Shown here one piece after another: positions 1-51,479 of a DNA stretch of 64,000 nt (positions are counted from its first letter, which is position 1; each line of letters starts with the position of its first letter). The notes under the pieces are model-generated. The model did not search any database. It was not told where the DNA came from and saw only the letters and a program-made list of their open reading frames with translations. Both the position numbers and the translations under genes were made by a program. Source of the stretch: Candidatus Aminicenantes bacterium (GTDB lineage: Bacteria > Acidobacteriota > Aminicenantia > Aminicenantales > UBA8522); NCBI GenBank assembly GCA_017886205.1, contig JAFNEO010000012.1, positions 235,207 to 299,206 of the forward strand, written 5' to 3'.

Positions 1-2124
1 CATTTTTTTCTGGTCCTTGCACTCGTCTTGATAGTGGGTTCTTTCTCGTGCGCTAAAAAACAAGAGCCGAAGCCGGTCGCACCGGCCGAGACGAATCCAT
101 TTTTCACGGAATGGACGGCGCCGTTCGGGACGCCGCCATTCCCCGAGATCCAAGAAGCCCACTACCTGCCTGCCTTCACGGAGGGCATGGCCCGCCAGAA
201 GAAAGAGGTCGAGGCCATCGCTTCGAGCGCCGAGGCCCCGAGCTTCGCCAATACCATCGAGGCCCTCGAGCGCACGGGGGAACTCCTCACCAAGGTCGAC
301 AACGTCTTCTACGCCCTGACCGACAACAATACGAACGAGGAGCTGCAAAAGATCGAAGCCGCGGTCGCGCCCATCCTGGCCAAGCACAATGACGATATTG
401 CCCTCAACGACATGCTTTTCCGGCGCGTCGAAGCAGTCTGGAGGGAAAAGGACAAACAGACCCTAACGCCCGAGCAGGCCCGGCTTCTGGAGCTGACCTA
501 CAAGACCTTCGTCCGCAGCGGCGCCGCCCTCGATGAAGCCAAGAAGGCCGAGCTCCGCAAGATCAACGAGGAACTGGCCGTCCTGACGGTTAAATTCGGT
601 GAAAACGTCCTCAAGGAAGACAACGGTTTCATGCTGGTCCTGGAAAAGCAGGAGGACCTGGCCGGCCTTCCCCAGGACGTCGTCACGGCCGCCGCCGAAG
701 CGGCCAAAACGAAAGGGCTCTCCGGCAAGTGGGTCTTCACCCTCCACAAGCCAAGCTGCATTCCGTTCTTCCAGTACTCGGCGCGCCGCGACCTCCGCGA
801 GCAGCTTTTCAAGGCTTTCATCAGCCGGGGCGACAACGGCAACGCGTTCGACAACAAGGCCGTTTTGGCGAAGATCGCGGTCCTTCGCGTCAGGCGGGCC
901 GCCCTTCTCGGCTACAAAACGCACGCCGACTACGTGCTCGAGGAGAATATGGCCAAAACGCCGGCCGGAGTTTATAAGCTCCTCGACCAACTCTGGGGGC
1001 CGGCCCTGGCCATGGCCAAGACGGAAGCGAAAGACCTCCAAGCCCTGATCGACAAGGAAGGTGGCAACTTCAAGCTCGAGCCCTGGGATTGGTGGTACTA
1101 TGCCGAGAAGCTGAAGAAGGCCAAATACGAGCTCGATGACGAGGTCCTGCGGCCCTATTTTGAACTCAAAGCCGTCCGCCAGGGAGCCTTCGACGTGGCC
1201 GGCAAGCTCTGGGGGCTCAAGTTTGAGCCGCGAACCGACATCCCCGTCTATCATCCCGACGTCGAGGTCTTCGAGGTCAAGGAGGCCGATGGAACACACC
1301 TCGGAATACTCTACACAGACTATTTTCCGCGGGCTTCCAAGCGGGGCGGCGCCTGGTCGGGCGCAATCAGAGAACAGTCGGTCCGGGACGGCCGGAAAGT
1401 GACACCGGTCATCTTCAATGTCGGAAATTTCACCAAGCCGACAGCGGAGAAGCCCTCCCTCATAACGTTCGAGGAGGCGCTGACGCTCTTCCACGAGCTC
1501 GGCCACGCCCTTCACGATCTGCTTTCGAACGTGACCTACGAGTCACTCTCCGGGACCAACGTGCCGCGCGACTTCGTCGAGCTCGGCTCCCAGATCATGG
1601 AGAATTGGGCAGGAGATCCCGAGGTTATCAAGTCCTATGCCAAGCACTACCAGACAGGCGAACCCATCCCGCAGGAGCTCGTGGACAAGATCAAAAAGGC
1701 GAGTCTCTTCAACCAGGGCTTCGCCACCGTCGAGTATATGTCCGCCTGCTACTTGGACATGGACTGGCACACGCTGTCCGAGCCGGTGGAGCAGGATCCC
1801 GTCGGTTTCGAGAATGCCGCCATGAAGAAGATCGGCCTGATTCCGGAGATCGTCGTCCGCTACCGCAGTCCCTACTTCCAGCACATCTTCAGCGGCGGTT
1901 ATTCGGCAGGATACTACAGCTACATCTGGAGCGAGGTGCTCGACGCCGACGCCTTCCAGGCCTTCAAGGAGACGAGCCTGTTCGACCAGGCGACGGCCAG
2001 GAGCTTCCGGGAGAACATCCTGGCCAGGGGCGGTTCGGAGGACGCCATGGCGCTCTACAAGCGGTTCCGCGGCCGGGAGCCCAAGGTCGAACCCCTGCTC
2101 AAACGCAAAGGCTTCTTGAAATAG
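1..2124 (+). CDS. dcp: M3-family peptidyl-dipeptidase (Dcp/oligopeptidase A-like); 5' end outside window, N-terminal lipoprotein-like signal (LVLALVLIVGSFSC)
   Basis: HELGHALH zinc-binding HExxH motif and overall M3A architecture in 698-aa ORF; ORF is open to position 1 in frame. Confidence 0.8.
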   Translation, partial: HFFLVLALVLIVGSFSCAKKQEPKPVAPAETNPFFTEWTAPFGTPPFPEIQEAHYLPAFTEGMARQKKEVEAIASSAEAPSFANTIEALERTGELLTKVDNVFYALTDNNTNEELQKIEAAVAPILAKHNDDIALNDMLFRRVEAVWREKDKQTLTPEQARLLELTYKTFVRSGAALDEAKKAELRKINEELAVLTVKFGENVLKEDNGFMLVLEKQEDLAGLPQDVVTAAAEAAKTKGLSGKWVFTLHKPSCIPFFQYSARRDLREQLFKAFISRGDNGNAFDNKAVLAKIAVLRVRRAALLGYKTHADYVLEENMAKTPAGVYKLLDQLWGPALAMAKTEAKDLQALIDKEGGNFKLEPWDWWYYAEKLKKAKYELDDEVLRPYFELKAVRQGAFDVAGKLWGLKFEPRTDIPVYHPDVEVFEVKEADGTHLGILYTDYFPRASKRGGAWSGAIREQSVRDGRKVTPVIFNVGNFTKPTAEKPSLITFEEALTLFHELGHALHDLLSNVTYESLSGTNVPRDFVELGSQIMENWAGDPEVIKSYAKHYQTGEPIPQELVDKIKKASLFNQGFATVEYMSACYLDMDWHTLSEPVEQDPVGFENAAMKKIGLIPEIVVRYRSPYFQHIFSGGYSAGYYSYIWSEVLDADAFQAFKETSLFDQATARSFRENILARGGSEDAMALYKRFRGREPKVEPLLKRKGFLK

Positions 2125-2139
2125 ACTGCTGGCAGGGGC

Positions 2140-3618
2140 TCACTTAATCCGCGCCAGGAGATGGCCGATCTTGCGGGCGACAGGGCTTGCGCCCCCGTCG
2201 ACATTGGACATGACGGCGACTATAAGCCCGAAATCCACGTAGATGTCGAGGTTGGAGTTGATGCCGTCAAACCCGCCGCCGTGACCAACGACCTTTCCGG
2301 CAGGACCCTCGCTGACCGAGAACCCGTAGCCGTAGTCCGCCTTCAGGTGGTCCGTCCACATGGCATTCCGGGTTTCCTTTGAGACATACTTCCCGTCGAG
2401 GAGGGCCAGGGCGAAATTGTGGAGGTCCTTGACGGTCGAGAACCCACCCCCGGCCGGACCGCCTTTGATGACGTGCTTGTAGAGGTTGTTCTGCCAGCCG
2501 TAGGGGCTCTTCGGGTCGGGGCTGTAGCCGATGGCCAGGTTCTCGACCGGGTAATCCATCTCGTAACAATCGGTGTTTGTCATCCCGGCCGGCTCGTAGA
2601 TCGCCTTCCTGATATAGCTGAAATAATCCTCGCCGCTGACTTTCTCGATGACAACACCCAGCAGGAACATCCCGGTGTTGCTGTACTGGAATTGTTTTCC
2701 CGGTTCGAAGGCCGGCCGGTCGTCCTTGATCAGGGGCTTGTAGTCATCGAGCTTGCGGAAAAGGGCGCGGGAGCTCTTCATGTAGGTCTCGTTGAAGTAG
2801 CTCCCCAGCCCGGAGGAATGGGTGAGGAGATGACGGACCGTGATCTTGTCCGTTACTTCTTTGGGAAGCCAGGATTCGTCGATGTATTTGCCGATCGGGT
2901 CGTCAAGGGAGAGCTTCCCCTTCTCGGCCAGCTGGACGATAGCCGTCGAGGTGAACATCTTGTTCATCGAGCCGAGGTTGAACTTAGTGTCGATGTTGTT
3001 GGGCACGTGGAAGGCCTTGCTCGCTTCCCCGGCGGCCATGGTCAAGAGCACCTGATCTCCCTTGGCTATAAGCAGCGTTCCCGAGAACAAGCCCTTATCG
3101 ATGAGCTTGGCCATGAAGGCCTTGGTCTGGCTCAGGAACTCCTCCTGGGTCAGGGGCAGCTCCTGGACGCTCTTCGGCGGGCGGGCGGGGCTGAAGCCGA
3201 TGCCGGCGATGAGGTGCTCGGGAGCAGCGCCGAACCGGACGACGATGCCCTGCCAATCCTCTAGGTTCTGGTCCTTGACGATAACTACGGTTTCTCCCTG
3301 GCGTTCGGGCATATAGGTGCGGATCCCTTGGAAATCGATGCCGCCCGTATCCCGGAAGAATCCCAGGAAGACGCTGATGTGTTCGTCCATGGGGGCCATG
3401 TTGCGGAAGCGCTCGGCGCACTCCGTGGAGATGAATTTGCGGACGCGCTCCATGTCCCCCGAGTTCAGCGTGTCGATGAGAGACTGGATGCGCTGGCCCT
3501 GGATGCCCGCGGGCATGACCGGGCTGTCTTTATAGTCGCCCTCCACAGGCCTCTGCGACCAGCCGGCCTGGACCATGAACAGACAGATAAATAGAACCGC
3601 GAAAAGCCTACGTTTCAT
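2140..3618 (-). CDS. Secreted serine hydrolase of the beta-lactamase/PBP (class C-like) family
   Basis: N-terminal signal peptide (MKRRLFAVLFICLFMVQAGWS); S-x-x-K motif 'GSMNKMF'; beta-lactamase-fold length and pattern. Confidence 0.75.
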   Translation of the reverse strand: MKRRLFAVLFICLFMVQAGWSQRPVEGDYKDSPVMPAGIQGQRIQSLIDTLNSGDMERVRKFISTECAERFRNMAPMDEHISVFLGFFRDTGGIDFQGIRTYMPERQGETVVIVKDQNLEDWQGIVVRFGAAPEHLIAGIGFSPARPPKSVQELPLTQEEFLSQTKAFMAKLIDKGLFSGTLLIAKGDQVLLTMAAGEASKAFHVPNNIDTKFNLGSMNKMFTSTAIVQLAEKGKLSLDDPIGKYIDESWLPKEVTDKITVRHLLTHSSGLGSYFNETYMKSSRALFRKLDDYKPLIKDDRPAFEPGKQFQYSNTGMFLLGVVIEKVSGEDYFSYIRKAIYEPAGMTNTDCYEMDYPVENLAIGYSPDPKSPYGWQNNLYKHVIKGGPAGGGFSTVKDLHNFALALLDGKYVSKETRNAMWTDHLKADYGYGFSVSEGPAGKVVGHGGGFDGINSNLDIYVDFGLIVAVMSNVDGGASPVARKIGHLLARIK

Positions 3619-6227: not shown

Positions 6228-7589
6228 ATGATCGGCCAGACGCTCAAACACTATAGGATCGAAGAGCTCCTGGGCATGGGCGGCATGGGTGTGGTCTACC
6301 GGGCGCGCGACACCAAGCTCCAGCGGCCCGTCGCCCTGAAGCTTCTCAAGCCCGAGCTCGTCGCCGACCCGGTGCGCAAGAGCCGCTTCCTGGTCGAGGC
6401 CCAGTCCGCCGCGGCCGTCACCCATCCTGCCATCGCCTCGGTCTATGACATCGACGAGGCCGACGGCACGATGTTCATCGCCATGGAGTACATCGAAGGC
6501 CCGACCGTCGGCCGCCTAATCGCCGAGGGCGAGCTCGACCTCCAGGGAGCCGTCGAGATCGGTCACCAGATCGCCGAAGGCCTGGCCCGGGCCCACGAAG
6601 CGAACATCATCCACCGGGACATCAAGTCCGATAACATCATGGTCACCCGGGACGGCCATGCCAAGCTCCTTGACTTCGGGCTGGCCAAGCTCCTCGATCC
6701 CGGCCTCACGGAAGACGATCTGCCCGCGGAGGTCAGCCGCACCCTGACAAGGGAGCGGGTCCACACGATCGCCGGAACGGTCCTGGGCACCACCAACTAT
6801 ATGAGCCCGGAGCAGGCCCGGGGCCGGCCCGTCGATTCGAGGAGCGACATTTTTTCCCTCGGCGTCGTCCTCTACGAGATGGTGACCGGGGAGCTTCCGT
6901 TCAGCCGAGAGACGGCGCTGGACACGATGCATGCCATCGTCTTTGAAGACGCCAAGCCCGTGACATCCCTGCGCCGGAACCTCCCGCCCCAAGTTCACCA
7001 GATCATCTCCCGCTGTCTGCGTAAGCGTCCCGAAGACCGCTACCCGGACGCCGGCCGACTGGCGGACGACCTCAAGCGGCTGGAGCAGAACATCGAGACT
7101 GGGACGAGCCTCTCCCTTCCTGCCGGAGAACGGATCAGGGGCTGGCTGGAATCCATCAAGACGTCGGTTCCGTTTGGGAACAAAGGACTAATCATCCTGG
7201 CGGCCGTCCTTGTCCTGGCCGTCGCTTTGCTCTTTACCGGGGTGCAGTGGGGAAGCCTCATCGGACCTGCCTTTCTGGTCTTATTTTTTTATCGGTTCGC
7301 CCGCAACCGGAAACGCCGGATGCTTTCGGATTTCACTAAGAAAATTTCGAAGCTTCCTGAAGTCAAGGCCGTCGTCATCCAGGAAGACCGGATCACGGTT
7401 GTCCTCGACAAGGCGCCGGCCAAGACCTACATCCACATCAACAGTCGGCTCGAGTCGCTCAACTCAAGGCTGTTTTTCGGCAAGCCGGCCGTTGTCGAGA
7501 TCAAGGATAACCTTACTGATGCGGAGCTCAAGAAGCTTATCCGCCAGCCGGGCGTCGTCTATATCAGAGACGACATCACGCTCGAATAG
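6228..7589 (+). CDS. Hanks-type Ser/Thr protein kinase with C-terminal transmembrane segment and extracytoplasmic tail
   Basis: GMGGMGVVY glycine loop, HRDIKSDNIMV catalytic loop, DFGLAK, SPEQARG; TM helix LIILAAVLVLAVALLF. Confidence 0.85.
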   Translation: MIGQTLKHYRIEELLGMGGMGVVYRARDTKLQRPVALKLLKPELVADPVRKSRFLVEAQSAAAVTHPAIASVYDIDEADGTMFIAMEYIEGPTVGRLIAEGELDLQGAVEIGHQIAEGLARAHEANIIHRDIKSDNIMVTRDGHAKLLDFGLAKLLDPGLTEDDLPAEVSRTLTRERVHTIAGTVLGTTNYMSPEQARGRPVDSRSDIFSLGVVLYEMVTGELPFSRETALDTMHAIVFEDAKPVTSLRRNLPPQVHQIISRCLRKRPEDRYPDAGRLADDLKRLEQNIETGTSLSLPAGERIRGWLESIKTSVPFGNKGLIILAAVLVLAVALLFTGVQWGSLIGPAFLVLFFYRFARNRKRRMLSDFTKKISKLPEVKAVVIQEDRITVVLDKAPAKTYIHINSRLESLNSRLFFGKPAVVEIKDNLTDAELKKLIRQPGVVYIRDDITLE

Positions 7590-7593
7590 TCCC

Positions 7594-7630
7594 AATTCGG
7601 TGCCAGACATTTAATTACCGAAATTCTAAT
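7594..7630. repeat. REP-like repeat family B copy (AATTCGGTGCCAGACATTTAATTACCGAAATTCTAAT)
   Basis: Near-identical to copies at 8729, 9552(rc), 16864, 34105. Confidence 0.8.
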
Positions 7631-7718
7631 TATGGAAATCAAATGCCTGGCCCATTATTATGTGGCAATTTATCATGCCCACGTGAAGAGACTACGGGAC
7701 GGAATTCGTCATCACCGG

Positions 7719-8642
7719 CTAAGGTCCAACGCTTTCCGCCGGTGCTGCGAAAAGCCGATACTCAGGGCCGAACTGGGCCAGGAATTCCAGGCTGAAGGCC
7801 CGGAGGGTGTACCAGAAGGGAAGCGTCACGACCGTGCCGATATAGGGGATGACCAGGAGCAGCCACCCGATGCAGCAGGTCACGAGTCCGGCGAAGATGA
7901 CCACGACCACAAACAACACGTAGAGCACAAAAATGAGCAGCCCGTACAGGATGAAGTGAAAAGGGTGGTGACCCAAGAGCGGGAGGAAGCGGCGCCAGCC
8001 TGCGACCGTCGAGAGGCGCTCTTTGCCCATGATCGGGACGACGAAGTCATTGAGGAACAGGGAGATATAGCCGATGACGATGAGGAGGAGGAGGAAGGCC
8101 AACCCCATACCGACCAGAAAAAGAATGGGCACCCGGCGGCCGAAGCCGACGTCATAAATCTGCCGTGCCCCTACGAAGAAAAAGACGATAAAGGCCACGA
8201 ATATAGCGAAGCTCACTAAACCGAACACTAGCCGCCAAAGGAACAGCGAGTCGCCTTCCTTTCGAAACTCCCCCCAAGGCTTGGCGATCTCGGCGCGGTT
8301 GTGGACCACGTTGTCGAGGAACATGAATTTTCCTCTCGAGCTCAGCCAGAGCAGGACGATCCCGACGGCGATCACGACCAAGGCCAGGACCCCGATGGCG
8401 ATGAACCAGCCCGGATGGCTCGTCAGCCATTCCCAGCCTCGATTGGGCAGGTCGAGGAATTCGCGGAAGGTCATATCGCCGCGGGCTCTTCCTCCGGCCG
8501 ATCCGTTCCGGCTTTCGGCCAACCCGGCCAGGAAGGCATTGAAACCGACGACAAACCACTTGTGCAGGTCGAAAGGCCTGAAAAGGGCCAGTTTCATCCG
8601 CTCCCAGGCGCGTCCGAAGGGCTCGAGGTAGGCGATGCGCAT
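7719..8642 (-). CDS. Polytopic integral membrane protein of unknown function
   Basis: 307-aa ORF with >=6 predicted hydrophobic helices; no recognisable catalytic motif. Confidence 0.45.
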   Translation of the reverse strand: MRIAYLEPFGRAWERMKLALFRPFDLHKWFVVGFNAFLAGLAESRNGSAGGRARGDMTFREFLDLPNRGWEWLTSHPGWFIAIGVLALVVIAVGIVLLWLSSRGKFMFLDNVVHNRAEIAKPWGEFRKEGDSLFLWRLVFGLVSFAIFVAFIVFFFVGARQIYDVGFGRRVPILFLVGMGLAFLLLLIVIGYISLFLNDFVVPIMGKERLSTVAGWRRFLPLLGHHPFHFILYGLLIFVLYVLFVVVVIFAGLVTCCIGWLLLVIPYIGTVVTLPFWYTLRAFSLEFLAQFGPEYRLFAAPAESVGP

Positions 8643-8728
8643 CTTATCCCTCCCCGATCGAAAGCGAATCTCACATCCTCTGTGGCGCTATTTTATCATC
8701 GAAACGCCCCCCGATGGCAAATTTTTTC

Positions 8729-9590
8729 AATTCGGTGCCAGGCATCTAATTGCCGAAATTATCGCTAACTGCTCGCTGACGCTTACCGGCTAGGTCGGAG
8801 GCACCTTCCTTGGTTTAGGCCCGCGTCTTTGCGGTGCAATTTTTTTGCCAGTCATCTTCTCGAGTTTCTCGATGAAACCTTGATCTCCCAACGGCCGGCC
8901 CGTCGAAGCATGATTTCGCAACAACCTCACCTCGGGTTCTGAGACTCCTTCTGCAAGGAAGGAGGCCCAGTCTTTGATTTGGGTTGCAAGATCGCAGTCG
9001 ACAATCACGGGGTCCGGCCTCCTATTGATGTGAGCCTCCGCACTCGACCACGGATAATCTTCGGCATTGGCGACAATGCCGGCTCTGACAGGATTGAGTT
9101 CGATGTAACGAAAGGCCGCGACCAAGTACGATTGGTCCATCGGATAGGAGATGAAACGTCCCTGCCAAAAGCTGCCTTTCCAGTCCTCGCGCAGATTAAT
9201 CGCCAGGGCATACCGCCAATGAGCCGCACTCATCGCGAGGGCCAGGCTTTCCGGCGTCTTGGGTACGGCAATCAGGTGGACATGATTGTCCATCAGGCAG
9301 TATGCCCAGAACGACAGGCCGGTCCGGTCCCCCTGCTTTTTGAGCAAACTTAGATAGAATCTGCGATCTTCATCGCCAAAAAAAACACGCTGGCGTCGGT
9401 TGCCACGCTGAATCACATGATGGGGGTAATCAGGAACGACCACTCTAATTTTTCGAGGCATCAGCCCTAATCCCTAAACGATATGGATGTTTCTTGCAGC
9501 ACGTTCTCTGATAAATGGAAGGACGCTATCAGGAGTGCAAGATTCTCAGATGCCTACCGAATTAGGTAATTAGATGCCTGGCACCGAATT
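8729..9590. mobile_element. REP-RAYT-REP unit (REPtron-like): RAYT gene flanked by inverted family-B REP copies
   Basis: Family B repeat at 8729-8760 (+ orientation) and 9552-9590 (inverted) bracket the IS200-like tyrosine transposase ORF 8790-9461. Confidence 0.65.
8790..9461 (-). CDS. REP-associated tyrosine transposase (RAYT; IS200/IS605 TnpA-like Y1 HUH enzyme)
   Basis: PDYPHHVIQRGNRRQ N-terminal block, HUH motif 'DNHVHLIAVP', catalytic Tyr block 'AFRYIELNPVRAGIV' typical of RAYT/TnpA_REP. Confidence 0.8.
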   Translation of the reverse strand: MPRKIRVVVPDYPHHVIQRGNRRQRVFFGDEDRRFYLSLLKKQGDRTGLSFWAYCLMDNHVHLIAVPKTPESLALAMSAAHWRYALAINLREDWKGSFWQGRFISYPMDQSYLVAAFRYIELNPVRAGIVANAEDYPWSSAEAHINRRPDPVIVDCDLATQIKDWASFLAEGVSEPEVRLLRNHASTGRPLGDQGFIEKLEKMTGKKIAPQRRGPKPRKVPPT

Positions 9591-10512
9591 AAATGAAGAT
9601 GTCCTGGTCGTAGCCGATCTTGACCAGCTCTATCTTGTTCGGGTCGGCGGTGCCCAGGTGGTACTCTGTGTCGGCCGTGAGGATATGTTTGGCCGGCGGG
9701 CTCAGCGGCCGCTCCTCCCCGAAGAATTCCTGCCGCTTGGCCTGGATGATGCGCAGTCCCGTGGCATCCACGGCCACCGGGTCGACGCCCACCAGGAATC
9801 CAAAATAGGACCAGACATACTTGGGGTTGAAGCTGTGCGGGCCGAGAACATGGAACTGGGGAGTGAGCATGACCAGGACGTTCAGGCGCGTCCTGCCCTT
9901 GACCTGCGGCTTCTCCCAGATCGAGGCCAGACTCGCGCAGCTGTCTCCATGGTAGTTCTCGGGGTCGGGGATGAACATGATGTAGTTCTTGATCAGGGTG
10001 CCCACTCCCGCCCAGTGGTGGGCCCTCATCGGCCGGGCGTTGATCAGGGCGGTGGCTTTCTGGAACACCGGGTGACGCAGGACGCCCCTGTCGTCGATGC
10101 CGATGTTGGCTTCTTTGACGCCGGCGTCCATGACGCGCTTTTTCAGGGCGTTCTCGACCTCGGGTGTAGTCGGAATGTATGTCCAAACATTGCTCTTGAT
10201 GCCGACGATGTCGTCCGGCTTGATGAAAGTCTTCCAAGACGCAACGGCATCCGGCTTGCCGGTTAGCTCCTTAACGGCCGCATCCAGCATGTCCAGGACA
10301 ACTTCGGCTTTGGGCCGGCCCTGCTCGTCGAGGACGTCCTTGTTTCTCACCAGGACGACTTTTGACTTCTTGATTTCCTGGGCGGCTCTAGCCGGGCCCG
10401 CTGCCTTCATGGCGGCCCACTCCGGCTTCGTCAGGAACACGGCGCCGCCGACCGCGGCCAGGGAGGTTCGCCTGATGAACTCCCGCCGGGTGATTATCTT
10501 CTTCTTTTTCAT
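9589..10512 (-). CDS. Twin-arginine (TAT) signal exported protein, unknown function (possibly DUF362-like); paralog of 26651-27541
   Basis: N-terminal 'ITRREFIRRTSLAAVGGAVF' TAT motif; ~50% identity blocks shared with 26651-27541 (IGIKSNVW.Y.PT.PEVE.A.KKR..DAGVKE.NIGIDD). Confidence 0.5.
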   Translation of the reverse strand: MKKKKIITRREFIRRTSLAAVGGAVFLTKPEWAAMKAAGPARAAQEIKKSKVVLVRNKDVLDEQGRPKAEVVLDMLDAAVKELTGKPDAVASWKTFIKPDDIVGIKSNVWTYIPTTPEVENALKKRVMDAGVKEANIGIDDRGVLRHPVFQKATALINARPMRAHHWAGVGTLIKNYIMFIPDPENYHGDSCASLASIWEKPQVKGRTRLNVLVMLTPQFHVLGPHSFNPKYVWSYFGFLVGVDPVAVDATGLRIIQAKRQEFFGEERPLSPPAKHILTADTEYHLGTADPNKIELVKIGYDQDIFI

Positions 10513-10586
10513 CTGTCCTCCTCGTTGTTGGCCGTCACCTCAGCACTTCTATCGGCTTACAAATTCTATCGATGGCATCGAAATCG

Positions 10587-11507
10587 TCAGTTCGTCGGGG
10601 ATTGTCCGGGCCCGATCATGTCAAGATAGGAGACGGCAGCCTCCCGCGACGGAGCGTTGAAGACAACAGAGAGCCTGGTTCCTTCGACCCGGCAGCCCGT
10701 CCAGAGGCCGTCGGGCAAGCGGGCCATTCCCTCGCTGGCGTCATGCAGGTAGTTCCGGAGAAAGCTCTGCTCGGCCTCCTTGGCCTTGGTCGCGTCCGGA
10801 TACAGGGCGATCAGTAGATGCACGGGCTTGCCGTCTGTCTTGTACTTCGCGAGCACCGCCTGGGTCTCATCGTCGATCAGAAGTATGTTTTCGTTGGCGA
10901 TGAAGAAGTGGCTGTTGAGCCAGATGTAATGATGGAAATAGCGGACACTTTCCGGGATGAGGTTCGGCTGCGGCAGGAGGCCGATGACCGGCGGCACGTC
11001 GCCTTGTTTGGGGACGGCGTCCGCCAGCGCCCGTCCGAGTCCGAGGACGATCTCCTTTTTCCCGCCGGTTTCGGGATAGGCTAGTATGGAGACATAGTAC
11101 CTGTCCTTCCAGAAAGTCAGCAGGCCCGCGTTGTATTCCGACCCCTGGCCCACAATCTTATCCTCGCGCTCCCGGCCATGAGAAAAGAGGCCGAAGGCGT
11201 CGTAGGAGTTGCCCATGTCAAAGATGTCGATGACGATCTCTTCCTCGTCTGCAGCCTTGTACCGGACGGCCAGGAGTTTCCGGAAATTGTAGGAGATGTA
11301 GAGCTCCGCTCCGCCGTCGATGTAATCGTAGAGGTTGCTCTTGTCGTAGGTTTCCGGCGGCTCGGCTTTCTTCCAGCCGCTCAACTCGGCCGGGAGGATG
11401 GAATAGAGCTTCTCGAGGGATTGAGACATGGCCACCCCCGTGGAGAGTATTAGCAGGACAAAACTAAAGACCAGCCGATACGAATTCCGGCGGGCCGATG
11501 TGCTCAT
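10587..11507 (-). CDS. Secreted protein of unknown function; partner of TAT protein; paralog of 27549-28439
   Basis: Signal peptide (RLVFSFVLLILSTGVAMSQS); conserved block YDYIDGGAELYISYNF shared with paralog; start codon uncertain (alternatives at 11525/11552). Confidence 0.45.
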   Translation of the reverse strand: MSTSARRNSYRLVFSFVLLILSTGVAMSQSLEKLYSILPAELSGWKKAEPPETYDKSNLYDYIDGGAELYISYNFRKLLAVRYKAADEEEIVIDIFDMGNSYDAFGLFSHGREREDKIVGQGSEYNAGLLTFWKDRYYVSILAYPETGGKKEIVLGLGRALADAVPKQGDVPPVIGLLPQPNLIPESVRYFHHYIWLNSHFFIANENILLIDDETQAVLAKYKTDGKPVHLLIALYPDATKAKEAEQSFLRNYLHDASEGMARLPDGLWTGCRVEGTRLSVVFNAPSREAAVSYLDMIGPGQSPTN

Positions 11508-11587
11508 CACAGTTCTCTGCCTCATGAACAAGTAGGAATAGCAAACGTCCAAGAAAAAGTCAAAAATACTCCTCCTCCATTTTAGTT

Positions 11588-11735
11588 CCCCTCTTTAGCA
11601 AAGAGGGGTCAGGGGAGATTTTATAAATAATAAGCAACTCCATATCCCTACTATCCTTGTTCGCCTTTTCCAATCCCCCCTCGCCCCCCTTTCCCAAAAG
11701 GGGGGGAAGATAAAACCTCCCTTTTCCAAAGGGGG
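11588..11735. other. Array of three similar short GC hairpins (CCCYTTT-loop-AAAGGGG) in an AT-rich divergent intergenic region
   Basis: cccctctttAGCaaagagggg (11588-11608), cccccctttCCCAaaagggggg (11684-11706), ccctttTCCaaaggggg (11718-11735). Confidence 0.4.
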
Positions 11736-11852
11736 ATAATAAAGATGCCAAGTGCCCGCCCTCCCGTGGATACCACACTAAACGTCATTGAGCCTAAATC
11801 CTGTTGCCTGAACACCGCTTTTTTCCTATGATGGTGAAAAAGGAGATCTTAG

Positions 11853-14224: not shown

Positions 14225-15346
14225 ATGAGCTGGTCGATCAAGCTTTTCCGCGTCAAGGGGATCGAGATCCGGGTCCATCTGACTTTTGTCCTGATCCTGA
14301 TCTGGGCCGCGAGCCGCTGGGGAGTGACGATGAAGGGTGGCACGAGGGGCGCGCTCTACGGTGTTCTGGTGATTCTCCTACTCTTTGTCTGCGTAACCAT
14401 CCACGAGCTGGCCCATAGCCTGACGGCGATGCGGTTCGGCGTCAAGGTAAGAAATATCACGCTCCTTCCGATCGGCGGCATCTCTCAGATGGAGGAGATG
14501 CCCAAGAAGCCATCCGAGGAGTTGCGCATGTCACTGGCCGGGCCGCTGAGCAACTTCATTATCGCCGCGGTCCTGCTCCTCCTCTCCATCCCCTTTCATT
14601 TCCAAGCGGAGGTTTCGGCCGCGCGGATGAGCCGGGTCCTGGGTTCGGTGAGCTGGGAGGGGCTCCTGGCCTATCTTATCACGGCCAACATCATGCTCGG
14701 GGTGTTCAACCTCCTGCCGGCCTTTCCCATGGACGGCGGGCGCGTCCTGCGCTCCCTGCTGGCCATGAGGATGGATCATGCCAAGGCGACCTCGGTGGCG
14801 GCCGCGGCCGGACAGGGACTGGCCTGGGTGATGGGACTTATCGGCGTCCTGAACGGCGCCTGGACGCTTGTCATCATCGCCGTTTTCATCTACCTCGGGG
14901 CCGGCCAGGAAGGGCGGATGGTCGAGGTCAAGAACGTGCTCGGCGAGCTGCGGGTGCGGCAGGCCATGACGACGAAGTTTCAGTCCGTGACCCCGGATGA
15001 GCCCTTGTCGCGGGCGGTGGACTTGATCCTGCACGGTTTTCAGACTGTCTTCCCCGTGCTCGAGGAGGGCCGTCTTGCCGGAGTCCTGACCGAGGCCGAC
15101 CTGGTGAGTGCGCTTAAGCACCAGGGACTCGAGGTGGCCGTAAAGATGGCCATGCGCACCGATGTCCCCACCGTCGACCCCGACAGCTCTCTATTCGACG
15201 CCCAACAGCTCATCTCCGAAAAACGGTTGGGCGCGCTGCCGGTAGGCCAGGGGGGGCGGATCATCGGCCTCCTCACTCCCCACGACGTGAGCGAAGCGTA
15301 CCTGTTCCTCTCCTTGAAGCCCGACCTCCTTGCCAAAACCCAATAG
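14225..15346 (+). CDS. Site-2 protease (M50 metallopeptidase) with C-terminal tandem CBS domains
   Basis: HELAHSL HExxH motif, NLLPAFPMDGG (LDG) motif, multiple TM helices, CBS-like C-terminus; SD aggagg upstream of ATG 14225. Confidence 0.8.
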   Translation: MSWSIKLFRVKGIEIRVHLTFVLILIWAASRWGVTMKGGTRGALYGVLVILLLFVCVTIHELAHSLTAMRFGVKVRNITLLPIGGISQMEEMPKKPSEELRMSLAGPLSNFIIAAVLLLLSIPFHFQAEVSAARMSRVLGSVSWEGLLAYLITANIMLGVFNLLPAFPMDGGRVLRSLLAMRMDHAKATSVAAAAGQGLAWVMGLIGVLNGAWTLVIIAVFIYLGAGQEGRMVEVKNVLGELRVRQAMTTKFQSVTPDEPLSRAVDLILHGFQTVFPVLEEGRLAGVLTEADLVSALKHQGLEVAVKMAMRTDVPTVDPDSSLFDAQQLISEKRLGALPVGQGGRIIGLLTPHDVSEAYLFLSLKPDLLAKTQ

Positions 15347-15426
15347 GGGTCAGGTCTCAACATTCAACAATTTAGACTCGATTCCAAGGCTCTGCCCGAT
15401 TTGTTGATTGTTGAGACCTGACCCCC
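15346..15426. repeat. REP-like repeat family A doublet (GGGGTCAGGTCTCAACATTCAACAA ... TTGTTGATTGTTGAGACCTGACCCC)
   Basis: Inverted pair with ~30-nt spacer; copies at 19177, 21903, 28519, 50694 and singleton half-sites elsewhere. Confidence 0.85.
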
Positions 15427-16404: not shown

Positions 16405-16502
16405 AAAATGGGGGCGGTCCTATTTTTTTTATTTAGCCGGATTATTTCCCGTAGTTGACGCCGCTGGCCGAGGATACTAGGATTTTATCCGCAGGACAAA
16501 CA

Positions 16503-16865
16503 GTGGAATTCGAGCACCGAGTCAAAGGTGTGATCAAGGCGATCCCCCGCGGCAAAGTCGCCACCTACGTTCAGGTCGCCGCTCTCGCCGGAAACCACCG
16601 GGCCGCCCGCCAGGTCGTCCGGGTTCTTCACGCGTCCTCCCACAAGGACCGCCTTCCCTGGCACCGCGTCATCAACAGCCGCGGCGGGATTTCGCTCGGA
16701 CGGGGCCGTGGGTTCGAGGAACAGAGGCGCCTCCTCCTCCAGGAAGGCGTTGACGTTAGCCGCTCGGGCCGCATCGCCCTCGAGGAATTTCAATGGGAAC
16801 CGGAAGGCCTGCGTTCCAGGGCCGTCGCGAAATTCCTCCGTGAGCTCAACCGAGAGGATACATAA
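16503..16865 (+). CDS. Alkyltransferase-like (ATL) protein, MGMT DNA-binding domain with Cys->Trp (PWHRV)
   Basis: 'IPRGKVATYVQVAALAG' and 'LPWHRVINSRGGIS' (PWHRV instead of PCHRV); start placed at GTG 16503 (track start 16455 is TTG). Confidence 0.6.
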   Translation: MEFEHRVKGVIKAIPRGKVATYVQVAALAGNHRAARQVVRVLHASSHKDRLPWHRVINSRGGISLGRGRGFEEQRRLLLQEGVDVSRSGRIALEEFQWEPEGLRSRAVAKFLRELNREDT

Positions 16866-16941
16866 TTCGGTGCCTACCTAATTCGGTGTCAGGCAGCTAA
16901 TTACCGAAATTCTCATTAGTGTATTTAGTTGCCTGGCACCG
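16864..16941. repeat. REP-like repeat family B doublet
   Basis: aattcggtgcctacctaattcggtgtcaggcagctaattaccgaaatt + inverted partial tttagttgcctggcaccg. Confidence 0.8.
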
Positions 16942-16980
16942 TCTTCAGGCACCGTATTAGCAAGCCTAGTCGTTCTGGAC

Positions 16981-17040: not shown

Positions 17041-19128
17041 ATGAAAAAAATTCTTTGGACAATCCTTATCTTTATCGGCTTGGCTGTCATCGGATACGCT
17101 CTGGAAAAACAGGTTGAGCCTGCGAAGCAGGTCGAACCGGCTAAGCCGGCCGCACAGGCCACTCAGATACCCGGCCCAGCTTTCAAGGACGTGCTGAGCC
17201 TCAAGTCCGTCGGCAGCCCGGTCATTTCTCCCAGCGGGAAGGACATCCTTTTCCCCGTGAGCCAGGCCGACTGGGATAAGAATAAGTACGATACCGAGAT
17301 CTGGCTCAGCCGCGATGGCACTGCTCCCTTTCAGCTGACGCAGACCACCGATGAAAGCAGCGACTCGCCGTCCTGGTCGCCGGATGGCCGCCGGATCGCC
17401 TTCCTGGCTAACCGCGACGGCAAAACCAGCCAGGCCTACCTCATCAACCCCGCCGGCGGCGAGGCCTTCAAGCTCACAAACCACAAGGAGGGCGTCAGCT
17501 CCTACGAATGGGCTCCCTCGGGCCAGTTCATTGCCTTCGCTTCGACCGAGCCCCAAAGCAAAGAGCAGAAGGGCCGCGAGAAACAGTACGGCAAGTTCCA
17601 GGTCGAAGACGCTGAATACCGGATGACCCATCTCTGGCTTGTCGCCGTCGAGCCGGGCAAGACTCCGGAGGCAAAGAGACTGACCTCGGGCACGGATTTC
17701 ACAGTCGGTGGTTTCGCTTGGTCACCTGACGGGAAGAAAATCGCCTTTGCCCACCGCCCCGACCCCCTGATCAACTCCTATCACAAGAGCGATATCTCCG
17801 TCCTGGACGTGGAATCCGGGAAGATCACACCGCTCGTCACCCAGCCGGGCTCGGACCGCGGGCCCCAGTGGTCTCCCGACGGCCAATGGATCGCCTTTTC
17901 CACCAAAATGGGGGACGATCGCTACTTTATCAACAGCAAAATCGCCAAGATACCAGGAGGGGGAGGCCCGATTACGGTCCTGACCTCAACCTTCGATGAG
18001 AATCCTTACATGCTCAAGTGGACAAAGGCCGGCCTTGCCTTTATTGGCTCCGAGGGTGTCTTTACGCGGCTGTATCTCCTCGACCCGGCCAATGGAAACG
18101 TCACCAAAATCGTCTCCACACCCGAAAATATCAGCGACGTGAGCTTCGCCGAGGACGGCAACGCGGTTGCCTTCGCCGGGGGTGACCGGACGACCCTTGG
18201 CGAAATCTACCGCGCGACCCTGGATTCGTGGAAACCGGAGGCCGTCACCAAGATGACTGAACAAGTCGCCGGCTGGAAGACCGGCACACGCGAAGTCATC
18301 CAATGGAAGAGCAAGGACGGCACCTCGATCGAGGGCGTCCTCTGGAAGCCCGACGGGTTCGAGCCCGGCCGGAAATATCCGCTGCTCGTCATCATCCACG
18401 GCGGACCGGCGGGCATCTCAATCCCGGTCCTGGTCGATGCCTACGTCTATCCCTATCTCGAATGGTTGAACAAGGGCGCGCTGATCCTGGAGCCGAACTA
18501 TCGGGGCTCAACGGGTTACGGCGAGAAATTCCGCTCCCTGAACGTCCGCAACCTGGGCGTGGGCGACATGTGGGACGTGGAATCCGGGGTCGATAGCCTG
18601 ATCGCGAAAGGCCTGGTCGATCCCGACCGGATGGGCGCCATGGGCTGGAGCCAGGGCGGCTACATCTCGGCTTTCCTGGCCACGAACTCGAAGAAGTTCA
18701 AGGCGATATCGGTCGGGGCCGGGATCTCCAACTGGGTAACTTATTACGTCAACACCGACGTCCATCCCTTTACCCGACATTATCTCAAGGCCACACCTTG
18801 GGACGACATGGAAATCTATTTGAAGACCTCGCCCATGACGAACATCAAGAAGGCGCGTACCCCCACCCTGATCCAGCACGGCGAGAACGACCGCCGCGTT
18901 CCCATCCCCAACGCCTACGAGCTCTTCCAGGGCCTCCAGGACGTGGGCGTCGAGACGAAGCTTATCGTCTATAAGGATTTCGGCCACGGTATCTCGCGGC
19001 CCAAGGAGCAACTCGCCGCCACGTGGCACAACTGGCAGTGGTTTGCCAAGTACATCTGGGGAGAGGATGTCGTGATTCCGGTGGAGGTTGAAGAGGAAAA
19101 AGAGAAGGACGAAGAGGCGAAAAAATAG
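17041..19128 (+). CDS. S9-family serine peptidase (prolyl oligopeptidase/acylaminoacyl-peptidase-like) with N-terminal beta-propeller
   Basis: Signal peptide; PD40-like WSPDG repeats; nucleophile elbow GWSQGGY; C-terminal D...FGHGI; SD ggaggg before ATG 17041. Confidence 0.85.
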   Translation: MKKILWTILIFIGLAVIGYALEKQVEPAKQVEPAKPAAQATQIPGPAFKDVLSLKSVGSPVISPSGKDILFPVSQADWDKNKYDTEIWLSRDGTAPFQLTQTTDESSDSPSWSPDGRRIAFLANRDGKTSQAYLINPAGGEAFKLTNHKEGVSSYEWAPSGQFIAFASTEPQSKEQKGREKQYGKFQVEDAEYRMTHLWLVAVEPGKTPEAKRLTSGTDFTVGGFAWSPDGKKIAFAHRPDPLINSYHKSDISVLDVESGKITPLVTQPGSDRGPQWSPDGQWIAFSTKMGDDRYFINSKIAKIPGGGGPITVLTSTFDENPYMLKWTKAGLAFIGSEGVFTRLYLLDPANGNVTKIVSTPENISDVSFAEDGNAVAFAGGDRTTLGEIYRATLDSWKPEAVTKMTEQVAGWKTGTREVIQWKSKDGTSIEGVLWKPDGFEPGRKYPLLVIIHGGPAGISIPVLVDAYVYPYLEWLNKGALILEPNYRGSTGYGEKFRSLNVRNLGVGDMWDVESGVDSLIAKGLVDPDRMGAMGWSQGGYISAFLATNSKKFKAISVGAGISNWVTYYVNTDVHPFTRHYLKATPWDDMEIYLKTSPMTNIKKARTPTLIQHGENDRRVPIPNAYELFQGLQDVGVETKLIVYKDFGHGISRPKEQLAATWHNWQWFAKYIWGEDVVIPVEVEEEKEKDEEAKK

Positions 19129-19471: not shown

Positions 19472-21859
19472 ATGATAGGTCAGACTCTCGGACATTATCG
19501 CATCATCGAAAAAATCGGTGCCGGAGGGATGGGTGTTGTCTATCGGGCTAGAGATGAACGCCTGGAAAGAGATGTCGCCATCAAAGTGCTGCCCGCCGGG
19601 GCTCTCGCCGATGAAGAGATGAGAAAGCGCTTCCGCAGGGAAGCCATGGCTCTCTCCAAGCTCAACCATCCCAATATCGCCACTATTCATGATTTTAACA
19701 CCGAAGGAGAGGTGGACTTTCTGGCCATGGAATACATATCCGGTGTCACGCTGGGGGAGAAGGCACACTCAGGAGGATTGCCGGAGGCGGAAGTTGTCCA
19801 GGTGGGAAGGCAAGCCGCCGAAGCGCTGGAGGCCGCCCATGAGCAGGGAATGATCCACAGGGATCTTAAGCCCGGGAACATCATGATCACACCCAAGGGT
19901 CTGGTCAAACTGCTCGACTTCGGCCTGGCCAAGCTTTTCCGGCCCTCAGGAACTCTAGACAAGACTTTAACCCTCACCGGCGCCGGCACAGAAGCGTTGA
20001 CGGGCACCCTTCCCTACATGGCGCCCGAGCAGCTGGAAGGCCGCGAAGTTGACGAGCGAACCGACATCCACGCCCTGGGTGCCATTCTCTATAAGCTGGC
20101 TACAGGGAAAAGGCCGTTTCCTCAGGAGACCCCTTCTGAGATTATTCATGCCATCCTCCACAAACAGCCTGAATTGCCTCGGTCCCTGGGACCCCAGATC
20201 TCCGAGGGGCTGGAGCGGATTATCTTCAAGTGCCTGGAGAAGGAGCCGGCCGACCGTTATGCGTCGGCCAAAGAGGTGATCGGCGATTTAAACAAGCTTG
20301 AGACCGGTGATCTTTCGGCGCTTATTGCCGGAAGGCCCGGGCGCAGGGCCAAGCGAAGCTTGTGGCAAAGACCGCTGCCTGTGAGTCTTTTAGCCCTCGT
20401 CGGAGTAGCGGCTCTTTTGTTCGCTCTCAACATCGGTGGAATGAGAGACCTTTTGTCGGGCCGGGCCAAAACCCCCGGAGTGCAATCACTCGCCGTTCTG
20501 CCCCTGAAAAGCCTTTCCCAGGATCCTGAGCAAGACTATTTTGCCGAGGGAATAACGGATGCTCTCATCACTGAATTAGGACAGATCAGCACCCTGCAGG
20601 TGAAATCTCGCACTTCCGTCATGCAGTATAAAAAAACAGAAAAATCTCTGCCGCAGATCGCCAAAGAGCTGAATGCAGACATGGTGGTTGAAGGTTCTGT
20701 CTTGAGGGCGGGGAAAAAAGTGCGGATCACAGCCAAGCTCATTCATCCGGCCGACGAACGGCAGCTCTGGGTTAAGAGTTACGATCGCGACATCGGCGAT
20801 TTTCTGATTCTGCAAAGCGAGATTGCCCAGGATATCACAAGACAGATCGGCATCAGGCTCAGGGAGGAGGAGAGTTTCCGGTTGGCCAAGAGAAAGACTG
20901 TGAATCCCCAAGCCCTCGACGCCTATCTCAAGGGGGTTTATTCAGGCGATAATGGATATTTTAATCAAGCGATCAAGCTTGACCCGGATTTTGCTCTGGC
21001 TTATACCGAGATTGCAAAAAGTTATTTTTATAGTGGTCTATTGGGCGATGTTCCGCCTCGGGAGGCCTTTTTGGAAATGAAACAAGCAGCTCTAAAAGCG
21101 CTGGAGAAGGATAATACTCTCGGAGAGGCCCACGGCTATCTGGCTGTGGCCTGGCTCCATTATGATCTGGATTGGACTGAGGCTGAAAAAGAATTCAAAC
21201 GAGCCCTTGAGCTCAACCCCAGCCTCGCCATGATCCACCATCTCTATGCGCATCTCCTGATGGCCCTGGACAGAATGGAAGAGTCGATAGCCGAGGTCAA
21301 ACTCGCCTCGGGACTTGATCCCTTTGCCAATCCCAATCATTTATGCTCCGGCTGGCACTGCTTCAGCACGGCAGGTTATGATGAGGCGATTGGGCTTGCC
21401 CGCCAAGACATCCAGGCGAATCCTAAGGATGCGTGGGCCCATGTCACTTTGGGAATGGCCTATGAACAGAAATTCTTGATCAAAGAGGCCATTGTCGAGT
21501 TCCAAATCGCCCGCGATAATTGGAAGGATAACTTTCTTCCCCTGGCCGACCTTGGTCACGCCTACGGGATCGCCGGCCAAAAGAAGGAAGCGCAGGAGAT
21601 TTTGGAGAAACTCTTAGAGGAGAAATTCTTAGAGAAGTCCAAGCGCATTTACGTTTCAGCCTATGATATCGCCGCCGTCTATATTGGCCTTGGAGAAAAG
21701 AATCAGGCCTTTGAATGGCTTTCTAAAGCCTTAGAGGAGCGGTCAGGCTTTCTGGTTTACATCAAATGCGATCGGCGGTTTGACGGGCTGCGGTCCGACC
21801 CCCGCTATGAGGCTTTGCTCAAACGTATCGGCCTGCCACTCGGCGCGATAAAGAGCTGA
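19472..21859 (+). CDS. Hanks-type Ser/Thr protein kinase with TM segment and C-terminal TPR-repeat domain
   Basis: GAGGMGVVY, HRDLKPGNIM, DFGLAK, APEQ; TM 'LPVSLLALVGVAALLFAL'; TPR-like C-terminus. Confidence 0.85.
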   Translation: MIGQTLGHYRIIEKIGAGGMGVVYRARDERLERDVAIKVLPAGALADEEMRKRFRREAMALSKLNHPNIATIHDFNTEGEVDFLAMEYISGVTLGEKAHSGGLPEAEVVQVGRQAAEALEAAHEQGMIHRDLKPGNIMITPKGLVKLLDFGLAKLFRPSGTLDKTLTLTGAGTEALTGTLPYMAPEQLEGREVDERTDIHALGAILYKLATGKRPFPQETPSEIIHAILHKQPELPRSLGPQISEGLERIIFKCLEKEPADRYASAKEVIGDLNKLETGDLSALIAGRPGRRAKRSLWQRPLPVSLLALVGVAALLFALNIGGMRDLLSGRAKTPGVQSLAVLPLKSLSQDPEQDYFAEGITDALITELGQISTLQVKSRTSVMQYKKTEKSLPQIAKELNADMVVEGSVLRAGKKVRITAKLIHPADERQLWVKSYDRDIGDFLILQSEIAQDITRQIGIRLREEESFRLAKRKTVNPQALDAYLKGVYSGDNGYFNQAIKLDPDFALAYTEIAKSYFYSGLLGDVPPREAFLEMKQAALKALEKDNTLGEAHGYLAVAWLHYDLDWTEAEKEFKRALELNPSLAMIHHLYAHLLMALDRMEESIAEVKLASGLDPFANPNHLCSGWHCFSTAGYDEAIGLARQDIQANPKDAWAHVTLGMAYEQKFLIKEAIVEFQIARDNWKDNFLPLADLGHAYGIAGQKKEAQEILEKLLEEKFLEKSKRIYVSAYDIAAVYIGLGEKNQAFEWLSKALEERSGFLVYIKCDRRFDGLRSDPRYEALLKRIGLPLGAIKS

Positions 21860-24712: not shown

Positions 24713-24789
24713 GAAATTCGCCCATCGCCCGGACGTTCGCACCCGGCTTGCTGACGCCCCGAATTTGTTAATTGTTGAGACCTGACCCC
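24713..24789. repeat. Extended family A unit (~77 nt: GAAATTCGCCCATCGCCCGGACG...GCTGACGCCCCGAATTTGTTAATTGTTGAGACCTGACCCC)
   Basis: ~80% identical over full length to 33367-33449; ends exactly at stop codon of LVIVD gene. Confidence 0.7.
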
Positions 24790-26630: not shown

Positions 26631-26650
26631 TTTCTCGCCCCCCGTCGCGG

Positions 26651-33851: not shown

Positions 33852-34106
33852 ATGGCCCTTTTTCTAACCCGCACTTTCCAGAAGAACTTTCTTCGACTTC
33901 CCAAAAACAGCCAATCCAAGGTTGAGGCCGCTCTGAGAGAGATCCATTCAAACCCCCTTGCCGGGAAAAAGCTTCTCGGGGATCTCGAAGGCGAATTTTC
34001 GTTTCGAATCGGTGCCTACAGAATTATCTATTTCATCGATCAAGAGAAGAACATTTGGGTTGAAACCGTCCGGCACCGAAAGGAAGTCTATAAAAGGCTC
34101 AAGTAA
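33852..34106 (+). CDS. RelE/ParE-family toxin
   Basis: 'FSFRIGAYRIIYFIDQEKNIWVETVRHRKEVY' RelE/ParE C-terminal signature. Confidence 0.75.
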   Translation: MALFLTRTFQKNFLRLPKNSQSKVEAALREIHSNPLAGKKLLGDLEGEFSFRIGAYRIIYFIDQEKNIWVETVRHRKEVYKRLK

Positions 34107-34143
34107 TTCGGTGCCAGGCAGCTAATTACCGAAATTCTAATAG
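34105..34143. repeat. REP family B copy
   Basis: aattcggtgccaggcagctaattaccgaaattctaatagc, begins at relE stop codon. Confidence 0.8.
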
Positions 34144-34415
34144 CTTCCCTGACGGGTTTCCGCGGCTATCATGAAGACGATCTTTTTCTCTTCATCCACT
34201 TCATAGAAGAACCGCTGTGGGCCGATTCTGTATCGCCATGTCTCCGGCTTGTAGCCTCTCAACTTCCTGATGTTTTTCCCAAAATAGGGCTGGGCTTTCA
34301 ATTGCGGATAAACGTATTCATGAAGCTTTTTCGTCAACTTCTCCTGCCTCGGACCTAGATTCCTTTGGAGGTCTTCCTGAAACTGCTCAGTCTCGAATAT
34401 ACGATACTCACTCAA
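34137..34415 (-). CDS. RelE/ParE-family toxin
   Basis: 'KLRGYKPETWRYRIGPQRFFYEVDEEKKIVFMIAAETR' signature. Confidence 0.7.
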   Translation of the reverse strand: MSEYRIFETEQFQEDLQRNLGPRQEKLTKKLHEYVYPQLKAQPYFGKNIRKLRGYKPETWRYRIGPQRFFYEVDEEKKIVFMIAAETRQGSY

Positions 34416-34837: not shown

Positions 34838-34854
34838 TGTCCGTTAACCCCCAA

Positions 34855-51454: not shown

Positions 51455-51479
51455 TTATTGATTGTTGAAACCTAACCCC
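51455..51479. repeat. Degenerate REP family A half-site
   Basis: ttattgattgttgaaacctaacccc. Confidence 0.6.

Follow-up and report, generated by a model that had tools for sequence, protein, structure and literature searches.

The sequence analysed here is a 64,000-nucleotide stretch (hereafter the window) of contig JAFNEO010000012.1, from assembly GCA_017886205.1 of an uncultured Aminicenantes (Acidobacteriota) bacterium. Homologues of its peptidase M3 and kinase with 82–92% identity carry the names Candidatus Aminicenantes or Aminicenantales. Between its DUF7544 and DUF362 genes lies an 862-bp unit in which one gene for a 223-amino acid (aa) protein (8790–9461, minus strand) is bracketed by two inverted copies of a short repeat, family B. 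The original prediction, made from the letters of the window, took this unit for a domesticated REP-associated tyrosine transposase (RAYT) gene that spreads its cognate repetitive extragenic palindromes (REPs) and their doublets (REPINs).

The two protein motifs on which that prediction was based, DNHVHLIAVP and YIELNPV, were confirmed in the translation of the open reading frame (ORF). All motif codons lie on the minus strand. Those of the HUH motif (H60-V61-H62 in DNHVHLI), located by reading the sequence and by alignment with E. coli TnpA_REP (PDB entry 4ER8), are at 9276–9284; the catalytic tyrosine motif YIELNPV, supported by that alignment and by 39 homologues, is at 9087–9107 (Y119 at 9105–9107); and the Ser-Ser pair of PWSS, with which the C-terminal tail starts, is at 9042–9047. 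Careful alignment left both catalytic motifs intact, since H60, H62, Y119, N123, P124, S139 and S140 are invariant in the 39 homologues and, in the 4ER8 alignment, HVH stands opposite HMH and Y119 opposite the first tyrosine of DYIYINPV. TnpA_REP was also the sole significant solved relative found by sequence (E = 4.5e-4), and the protein matches Pfam PF01797 (Y1_Tnp, 'Transposase IS200 like') with 44.6 bits (cut-off 23). An AlphaFold (AF2) model derived from the 39 homologues (pLDDT 89.5, pTM 0.86) had 4ER8 as its top Foldseek match (E = 2.7e-8, TMt 0.76), with the ISDra2, IS608 and IS200 transposases ranking after it. As judged from its sequence and modelled structure, the product is an HUH/Tyr enzyme of the Y1 type with intact catalytic residues and the characteristic fold, i.e. 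a putative single-strand DNA endonuclease of transposase-like kind. It belongs to a large family (7,599 homologous proteins at E ≤ 1e-3). Ratios of nonsynonymous to synonymous substitution (dN/dS) were 0.19, 0.15 and 0.13 in comparison with orthologues of 89, 78 and 67% identity, respectively; selection thus maintains the protein. Its C-terminal tail of ~85 aa is conserved among the 39 homologues and helical in the AF2 model; no Pfam match was obtained for the last 88 aa, even at E ≤ 10.

The published classification of such enzymes provides a table of diagnostic motifs (Quentin 2018, Table 1; PMC6006769). For TnpA_Y1 subclass 2.1 it lists an HuH motif NHVH, W[EQ], YIELNP or Y[IV]HLNP and an 'SS' tail, with a median length of 238 aa; the window protein has DNHVH, FWQ, YIELNP and PWSS. 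In the same work, the tyrosine motif is Y---NP in class 2 (TnpA_REP-like) and Y---Q in class 1 and IS200, subclass 2.1 equals Group 1 of Bertels, and it is equated with the TIRYTs of Di Nocera 2013. Judged against this motif table alone, the protein is a member of subclass 2.1, i.e. a Group 1 RAYT or TIRYT. Its RAYT label was upheld in part: the protein is a Y1 enzyme with TnpA_REP as its closest solved relative, but it is not a canonical RAYT, as it scores 58.5 bits with the REP_Tyr_transpos equivalog (NCBIfam NF047646; curated cut-off 80) and the B unit contains neither GTAG nor GTGG (the GT[AG]G tag) on either strand. We found no experimental work on TIRYTs in the literature.

The inverted copies of family B on either side of the ORF were likewise confirmed. 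The downstream copy (8729–8760, plus strand) is an exact 32-mer, AATTCGGTGCCAGGCATCTAATTGCCGAAATT, located 29 nt past the stop codon. The upstream copy (9559–9590, minus strand) has, in gene orientation, the sequence AATTCGGTGCCAGGCATCTAATTACCT; ~100 nt separate its inner end from the ATG, and the AATT on its outer side shares bases with the TAA stop (9589–9591) of the DUF362 gene. Compared as arms (8726–8757 and 9562–9593), the two flanks are 91% complementary over 32 nt. An inner partial direct copy read from the sequence, AATTCGGTAGGCATCT (9548–9563, minus strand), adjoins the upstream repeat, and similar combinations of a half-copy with a full copy recur at 16864 and at other loci in metagenomes.

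Three further occurrences, announced at 7594, 16864 (a doublet) and 34105, were recovered by a mismatch scan. The first occupies 7594–7659, between the convergent kinase and DUF7544 genes, where a plus-strand unit (7594–7625; 3 mismatches) starts 4 nt after the kinase stop and is accompanied by a degenerate inverted partner (~7632–7659, minus strand). The second is a composite doublet (16864–16961) made of a half-copy, a full unit (16880–16911, plus strand), an inverted unit ending at 16945 (minus strand) and another half-copy, which is mirrored; the TAA stop of an ORF (16455–16865) with a 6-O-methylguanine-DNA methyltransferase (MGMT) domain extends into this doublet. The public annotation of that region is probably wrong: it calls a minus-strand gene (16485–16793; 102 aa, no domain), and the overlapping plus-strand ORF displays a clear MGMT DNA-binding domain (Pfam, 79.7 bits). 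The third is a solitary unit (34105–34136, plus strand) placed exactly between the stops of two convergent ParE-like toxin genes (33852–34106, plus strand; 34137–34415, minus strand), which are one B unit apart: it overlaps the TAA of the first gene, and its other end abuts the second stop. This toxin gene pair is found inside a stretch (~29.5–34.4 kb) with low G+C content at third codon positions (GC3), of seemingly foreign composition. That B copies directly follow stop codons holds throughout, since they abut stops, overlap them or lie 4–29 nt beyond them; in three cases (the DUF362 gene, the MGMT-domain ORF and the ParE gene) it is the T|AATT of the unit that overlaps a TAA.

The ~32-nt repeat AATTCGGTGCCAGGCATCTAATTACCGAAATT therefore brackets the gene in inverted orientation and also occurs, as solitary units and inverted doublets, behind the stops of other genes. 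A Hamming census of the 64 kb gave 7 units at 5 loci, intergenic throughout, and the 32-mer had four matches at ≤3 mismatches when 0.00 were expected from 100 shuffles of the window. A scan of GTDB representative genomes returned 15 matches for ~17 expected by our arithmetic; its only non-random signal was a group of three matches in one gammaproteobacterial metagenome-assembled genome (MAG).

In a genome with repeat-filled spacers, a gene could come to be flanked in this way by coincidence. Indeed, 3 of the 50 other genes of the window are bracketed by inverted repeats, all of them copies of a second family, A, and bracketing within the window is on its own weak evidence for that reason. Against coincidence, B is present in only 5 of ~52 spacers, and by our arithmetic the chance of two adjacent inverted matches is ~0.004. 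A far stronger argument came from other genomes. Eleven loci encoding homologues of 33–100% identity were oriented, and the upstream flank of each was aligned with the reverse complement of its downstream flank. Inverted arms were found around the gene in all 11 (scores 47–67; shuffle maximum 30). The upstream arm ends 34–105 nt before the ATG in 10 of them, and the downstream arm either overlaps the stop or lies shortly beyond it. In unrelated genomes, homologues are thus bracketed at similar distances, each by its own repeats. Because of this result, which carries the claim, we regard the repeats as cognate to the gene; the coincidence explanation is close to refuted and can hardly be credited any longer.

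The arm sequences vary with the divergence of the protein, yet a core, GG[TG]G[AC]C[AG][CG], is common to the loci. It takes the form CGGTGCCAG in the window, L027 and L029 and again in the distant L037 and L017, CGGTGACGC in L055, TGGTGACAG in L054, AGGTGACAG in L066, CGGGGACAC in L064 and L056 and AGGTGACAC in L026. Further copies of their own arm were seen in L056 (3), L037 (4), L054 (1) and L055 (2). The most divergent proteins, 33–34% identical to that of the window, are encoded by L037 and by three loci of the Gammaproteobacteria MAG MFD00032.bin.2.94 (L017, L024 and L025); they have an NHFH motif and YVERNALRAG in place of Y---NP. Their genes are flanked by a perfect palindrome, AATTCGGTGCCAGGCACCGAATT, which contains the 16-nt core of family B and also forms doublets nearby. 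Between the window and these four loci, the protein has diverged far more than the repeat core.

The unit is in our judgement probably a TIRtron, a REPtron-like arrangement with a resident single-copy chromosomal gene. In TIRtrons, as described, a RAYT-like gene lies between terminal inverted repeats; many of these repeats share GGGGWSAS, and some belong to dispersed families with dimers (Di Nocera 2013; PMC3733652). The unit agrees with this description in several respects: the protein has nearly the typical length (223 versus a median of 238 aa) and the NHVH, W[EQ], YIELNP and SS motifs, the terminal inverted repeats stand at a set distance from the gene and have arms of the GGGGWSAS type, the gene has a low copy number, and moderate repeat families with dimers are found in some genomes. 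The window core GGTGCCAG fits GGGGWSAS at 6 of 8 positions, and the core GGGGACAC of L056 and L064 at 8 of 8. Acidobacteria are already among the known hosts. The arrangement itself is thus not new; what the window adds is another example, a new repeat sequence and, in Aminicenantes, a new host lineage.

The gene appears to be a resident of its locus. An identical protein is encoded on 15 contigs in a single context, the one exception being a deletion variant, L008. Relatives keep the same arrangement: in L028 the gene (73% identical) lies between the same neighbours (DUF7544 89%, kinase 90%), in L029 it is 78% identical (DUF7544 85%, DUF362 87%), and synteny is partly kept in L055. A B copy occupies the position of the downstream arm in both L028 and L029, and L028 has a B doublet at the site corresponding to 7594, in the kinase–DUF7544 spacer. 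Some gene content does change. The deletion variant L008 (Logan SRR27069941) lacks window positions 7626–8727, with the whole DUF7544 gene, and has a single B copy at the junction (L008 902–934), as recombination between the two direct copies (7594, 8729), or the converse insertion, would produce. L029 carries an extra 539-aa gene (1922–3541) between the upstream arm and DUF362. In L072 (GCA_964353705.1; neighbours 82–87% identical in DNA), the DUF7544–DUF362 interval is occupied by two other genes. Because of the changes in L008, L029 and L072, gene content can be said to shift right at repeat boundaries. A search with the exact DUF362 neighbour for an empty site returned only contigs that contain the RAYT-like gene; the relative without it was found via the kinase orthologue. 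At the position of the downstream arm L072 retains a truncated B relic, AATCCGGTGCCAGGCAACT, and no intact B copy is present within 21 kb, so that gene and repeat family are missing together.

Several observations weigh against the TIRtron interpretation, of which the main rivals are an autonomous insertion sequence (IS) and a purely regulatory role of the repeats. A first set concerns mobility of the gene. It is absent from the orthologous locus of L072, and its GC3 is 0.60, versus 0.79–0.84 in the adjacent genes; together these leave room for a past horizontal gain. The same two facts, along with the name of the Pfam family, would also suit an autonomous IS of the IS200/IS605 type, a still selfish element that would comprise the whole mobile 862-bp unit, gene and ends, and of which the dispersed B copies would be solo ends or derivatives resembling miniature inverted-repeat transposable elements. 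Group 1 is, moreover, among the more IS-like RAYT groups, with 6.3% duplicates and 1.2% of members on plasmids (Bertels 2017; PMC5581495). However, there is one copy in the 64 kb, with no second Y1 gene in the window, one context over the 15 contigs, and an orthologous position kept in relatives whose copies are 73–89% identical. Plasmid homologues are rare (27 of 72,556 records, each below 40% identity). No tnpB-like ORF is adjacent to the gene, and neither a target duplication nor a second insertion site was seen. The tyrosine motif is of the class 2 form, Y---NP, rather than the Y---Q of IS200, and TnpA_REP ranks above ISDra2 and IS608 among the structural matches. The ends differ as well: in IS608 both end hairpins are on the same strand, whereas those of the window unit are inverted repeats. 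What the unit does share with IS608 and ISDra2 is the HUH/Y1 fold and short structured DNA on both sides of the gene. We consider an autonomous IS an improbable explanation of this locus.

A second set of observations concerns the repeats themselves. As single-stranded DNA, single B units reach −3.5 to −5.8 kcal/mol (z = +0.4 to −2.1) and fold no better than shuffled sequence. The original prediction had proposed hairpin folding as a check, and the outcome is divided: the 16864–16961 doublet folds strongly (−23.8 kcal/mol, z = −6.7; none of 200 shuffles as good), the single units weakly, and the degenerate doublet at 7594–7659 gave −9 kcal/mol (z = −1.5). A REPIN is defined as a pair of inverted units that are separated by a short spacer, form a long hairpin and replicate as one entity (Bertels & Rainey 2011). 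This architecture is limited in the window to one good doublet and one degenerate one, the unit at 34105 and both gene-flanking units being solitary. Elsewhere the picture is more regular. The B core was found in 28 stretches of metagenome, often as a palindrome that is perfect or nearly so (either AATTCGGTGCC-A-GGCACCGAATT or AATTCGGTGTC-A-GACACCTAATT) and often as doublets, frequently with an extra outer half-copy; relative to the perfect form AATTCGGTGCC-A-GGCACCGAATT, the lineage of the window has a degraded palindrome. One compensatory change was observed between genomes (GGTGCC/GGCACC versus GGTGTC/GACACC), but it does not discriminate, because a double-stranded palindromic site would lead to the same prediction. 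The symmetry of the palindrome suits a dimeric double-stranded binding site equally well as a hairpin.

It could accordingly be proposed that the repeats are host or regulatory elements which the enzyme does not mobilise, for example double-stranded operators for its C-terminal domain or hairpins at transcript ends; other causes would then account for the spread or persistence of the dispersed copies. The near-palindrome of an 11-nt half-site with its extra direct half-copies is reminiscent of iterons, every B copy is at the 3' end of a gene, and single units make poor hairpins; in addition, the ~85-aa helical tail is conserved, and part of subclass 2.1 has tails resembling a helix-turn-helix (Quentin 2018; PMC6006769). 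Yet a mere DNA-binding regulator would need neither the HUH motif nor the tyrosine, which are invariant in a protein under purifying selection, and doublets of the REPIN type exist. Terminator and promoter consensus scans stayed at chance level, no T-run follows the hairpins, and an Rfam scan of 7000–11000 yielded only a snoRNA match at chance level. A sigma-54 promoter was considered on account of a TGGCAC on the reverse strand and rejected, since TTGC is not at the required spacing. Finally, insertion/absence polymorphisms of family A between relatives (see below) indicate that such elements do move. A purely regulatory role is therefore unlikely in our estimation, although somewhat less so than an autonomous IS.

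The remaining reservations concern scope and precedent. No REP-like sequences were reported for subclass 2.1 by Quentin 2018 (PMC6006769). The copy number of B is known from 64 kb (7 units), the bracketing of other genes by family A has already been mentioned, and L072 is only one independent site for the comparison 'no gene, no B copies', even though what is observed there supports a link between gene and repeat family. We infer mobilisation of B by analogy, transposition or cleavage events not being among our observations, and the terms 'domesticated' and 'spreads its REPINs' of the original prediction have a similar standing, being drawn from the single copy, synteny, purifying selection and co-occurrence across genomes. 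On the model of E. coli TnpA_REP and of the IS200/IS605 transposases, the enzyme of this probable TIRtron would recognise the shared core in single strands of DNA, folded probably into an imperfect hairpin or, in a doublet, into a long one. The enzyme would nick and rejoin the DNA via Tyr119 with a metal bound by the HUH motif, and dispersed B elements may be copied or maintained in this way while its own gene stays put.

Comparison with better known systems shows where the unit resembles them and where it departs. The E. coli REPtron (TnpA_REP with REPs and bacterial interspersed mosaic elements; 4ER8) provides the best sequence and fold match, the alignment of the HUH and tyrosine motifs, the Y---NP form, a single-copy gene and flanking inverted repeats that are also dispersed after genes. 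On the other hand, identity is 17% over the structural alignment, the window protein has the extra C-terminal tail of ~85 aa, and the B repeat differs from REPs in having neither the GT[AG]G tag nor a stable bulged hairpin and in the far smaller number of copies seen (7 units in 64 kb); canonical REPs are extragenic, as B copies are, and number >100 per genome. The REPIN–RAYT systems known from Pseudomonas (Group 3) and from enterobacteria (Group 2) are similar in their inverted doublets with long hairpins, in apparently vertical inheritance at a fixed locus and in the joint absence of gene and repeat family (here one case, L072); they differ in that B units are mostly solitary, with one well-formed doublet, and in the RAYT group concerned. 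IS200/IS605 elements have the Y---Q motif, occur in multiple near-identical copies, carry subterminal hairpins on the same strand and often include tnpB. The unit is set apart from them by Y---NP, by ends that are inverted, by the lack of tnpB and by a single copy in a syntenic position.

The second repeat family, A, is denser than B, with 16 units (unit sequence GGGGTCAGGTCTCAACAATCAACAAAT) at 11 intergenic loci between 15346 and 51479. It is equal in length to family B and ~50% identical to it, and the start of its unit, GGGGTCAG, matches the TIRYT motif GGGGWSAS exactly; no cognate Y1 gene for it was found in the window. At five of the 11 loci two inverted units form a doublet, always offset by 43 nt (15346/15399, 19178/19221, 21903/21946, 28519/28562 and 50695/50738), and the six singles (16979, 24763, 33423, 34810, 48222 and 51453) are all on the minus strand. 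L072 has three A doublets, at 11369–11438, 17633–17702 and 20105–20184, which were compared with 7594–7659, 11553–11852 and 15346–15425 of the window. One of them is orthologous to a doublet of the window, one is in a spacer that has no A there, and one lies behind the kinase stop. The kinase–DUF7544 spacer thus contains an A doublet in L072 and a B doublet in both L028 and the window, from which it follows that the two families use the same spacer. It is this kind of insertion/absence polymorphism between relatives that leads us to state that such elements do move.

Other repeats were noted as well. Short palindromes with C-runs and G-runs (CCCCCTTTGGAAAAGGGAGG, CCCCTCTTTGCTAAAGAGGGG) crowd some spacers (window 11553–11852; L072 15424–15623), and one spacer palindrome of L072 again contains GGGGGTCAG…CTGACTCCCC; small palindromic repeats seem to be unusually abundant in the spacers of this lineage. 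The overall GC skew of the window is too flat for a leading- or lagging-strand assignment. Two paralogous genes of ~1.1 kb (51557–52651 and 56507–57568), 4.9 kb apart, are 94–96% identical over 300-nt stretches, and a third, partial copy is present at 47280–47379. They share an upstream element of 59 nt (…GTAAACTTTTGTTGACAT…; 34844–34902, 51472–51530 and 56414–56472), which is preceded by a family-A-like unit. Within a minus-strand ORF (24789–27002), five copies of a 40-nt motif, mostly spaced by 126–129 nt, occur at 25020–26076, which suggests a product with 42-aa tandem repeats.

No RAYT-like group is larger or more widespread than subclass 2.1 (Group 1), which the recent literature describes as having neither REPs nor REPINs. 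Whether it has cognate repeats is a matter of published disagreement: Di Nocera 2013 reported some, Quentin 2018 none, Bertels 2017 (PMC5581495) counted only ~12 occurrences of the 16-mers flanking Group 1 genes, and REPINs are found only in Groups 2 and 3 according to Bertels & Rainey. The present locus differs from these negative reports in its REPIN-like doublet and in the true palindromes of related genomes. Enzymes that are just 33% identical, in Aminicenantes and in a gammaproteobacterial MAG, are associated with nearly the same 16-nt core. We tentatively suggest, while holding the opposite to be somewhat better favoured, that subclass 2.1 may maintain REPIN-like populations built on a deeply conserved core, AATT-N-GG[TG]G[AC]CAG/C. 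On that reading, two such families, A and B, would alternate in the spacer behind the kinase gene of this Aminicenantes lineage, and B would vanish with the loss of its gene. The general picture of REP/RAYT biology is unchanged by these findings. At this locus and ten homologous ones, however, repeats are always present, they share a conserved core, and palindromes and doublets are possible, which contradicts the statement that RAYT Group 1 is without REP- or REPIN-like partners; the family thereby becomes accessible to oligonucleotide cleavage assays and to surveys of the RAREFAN type.

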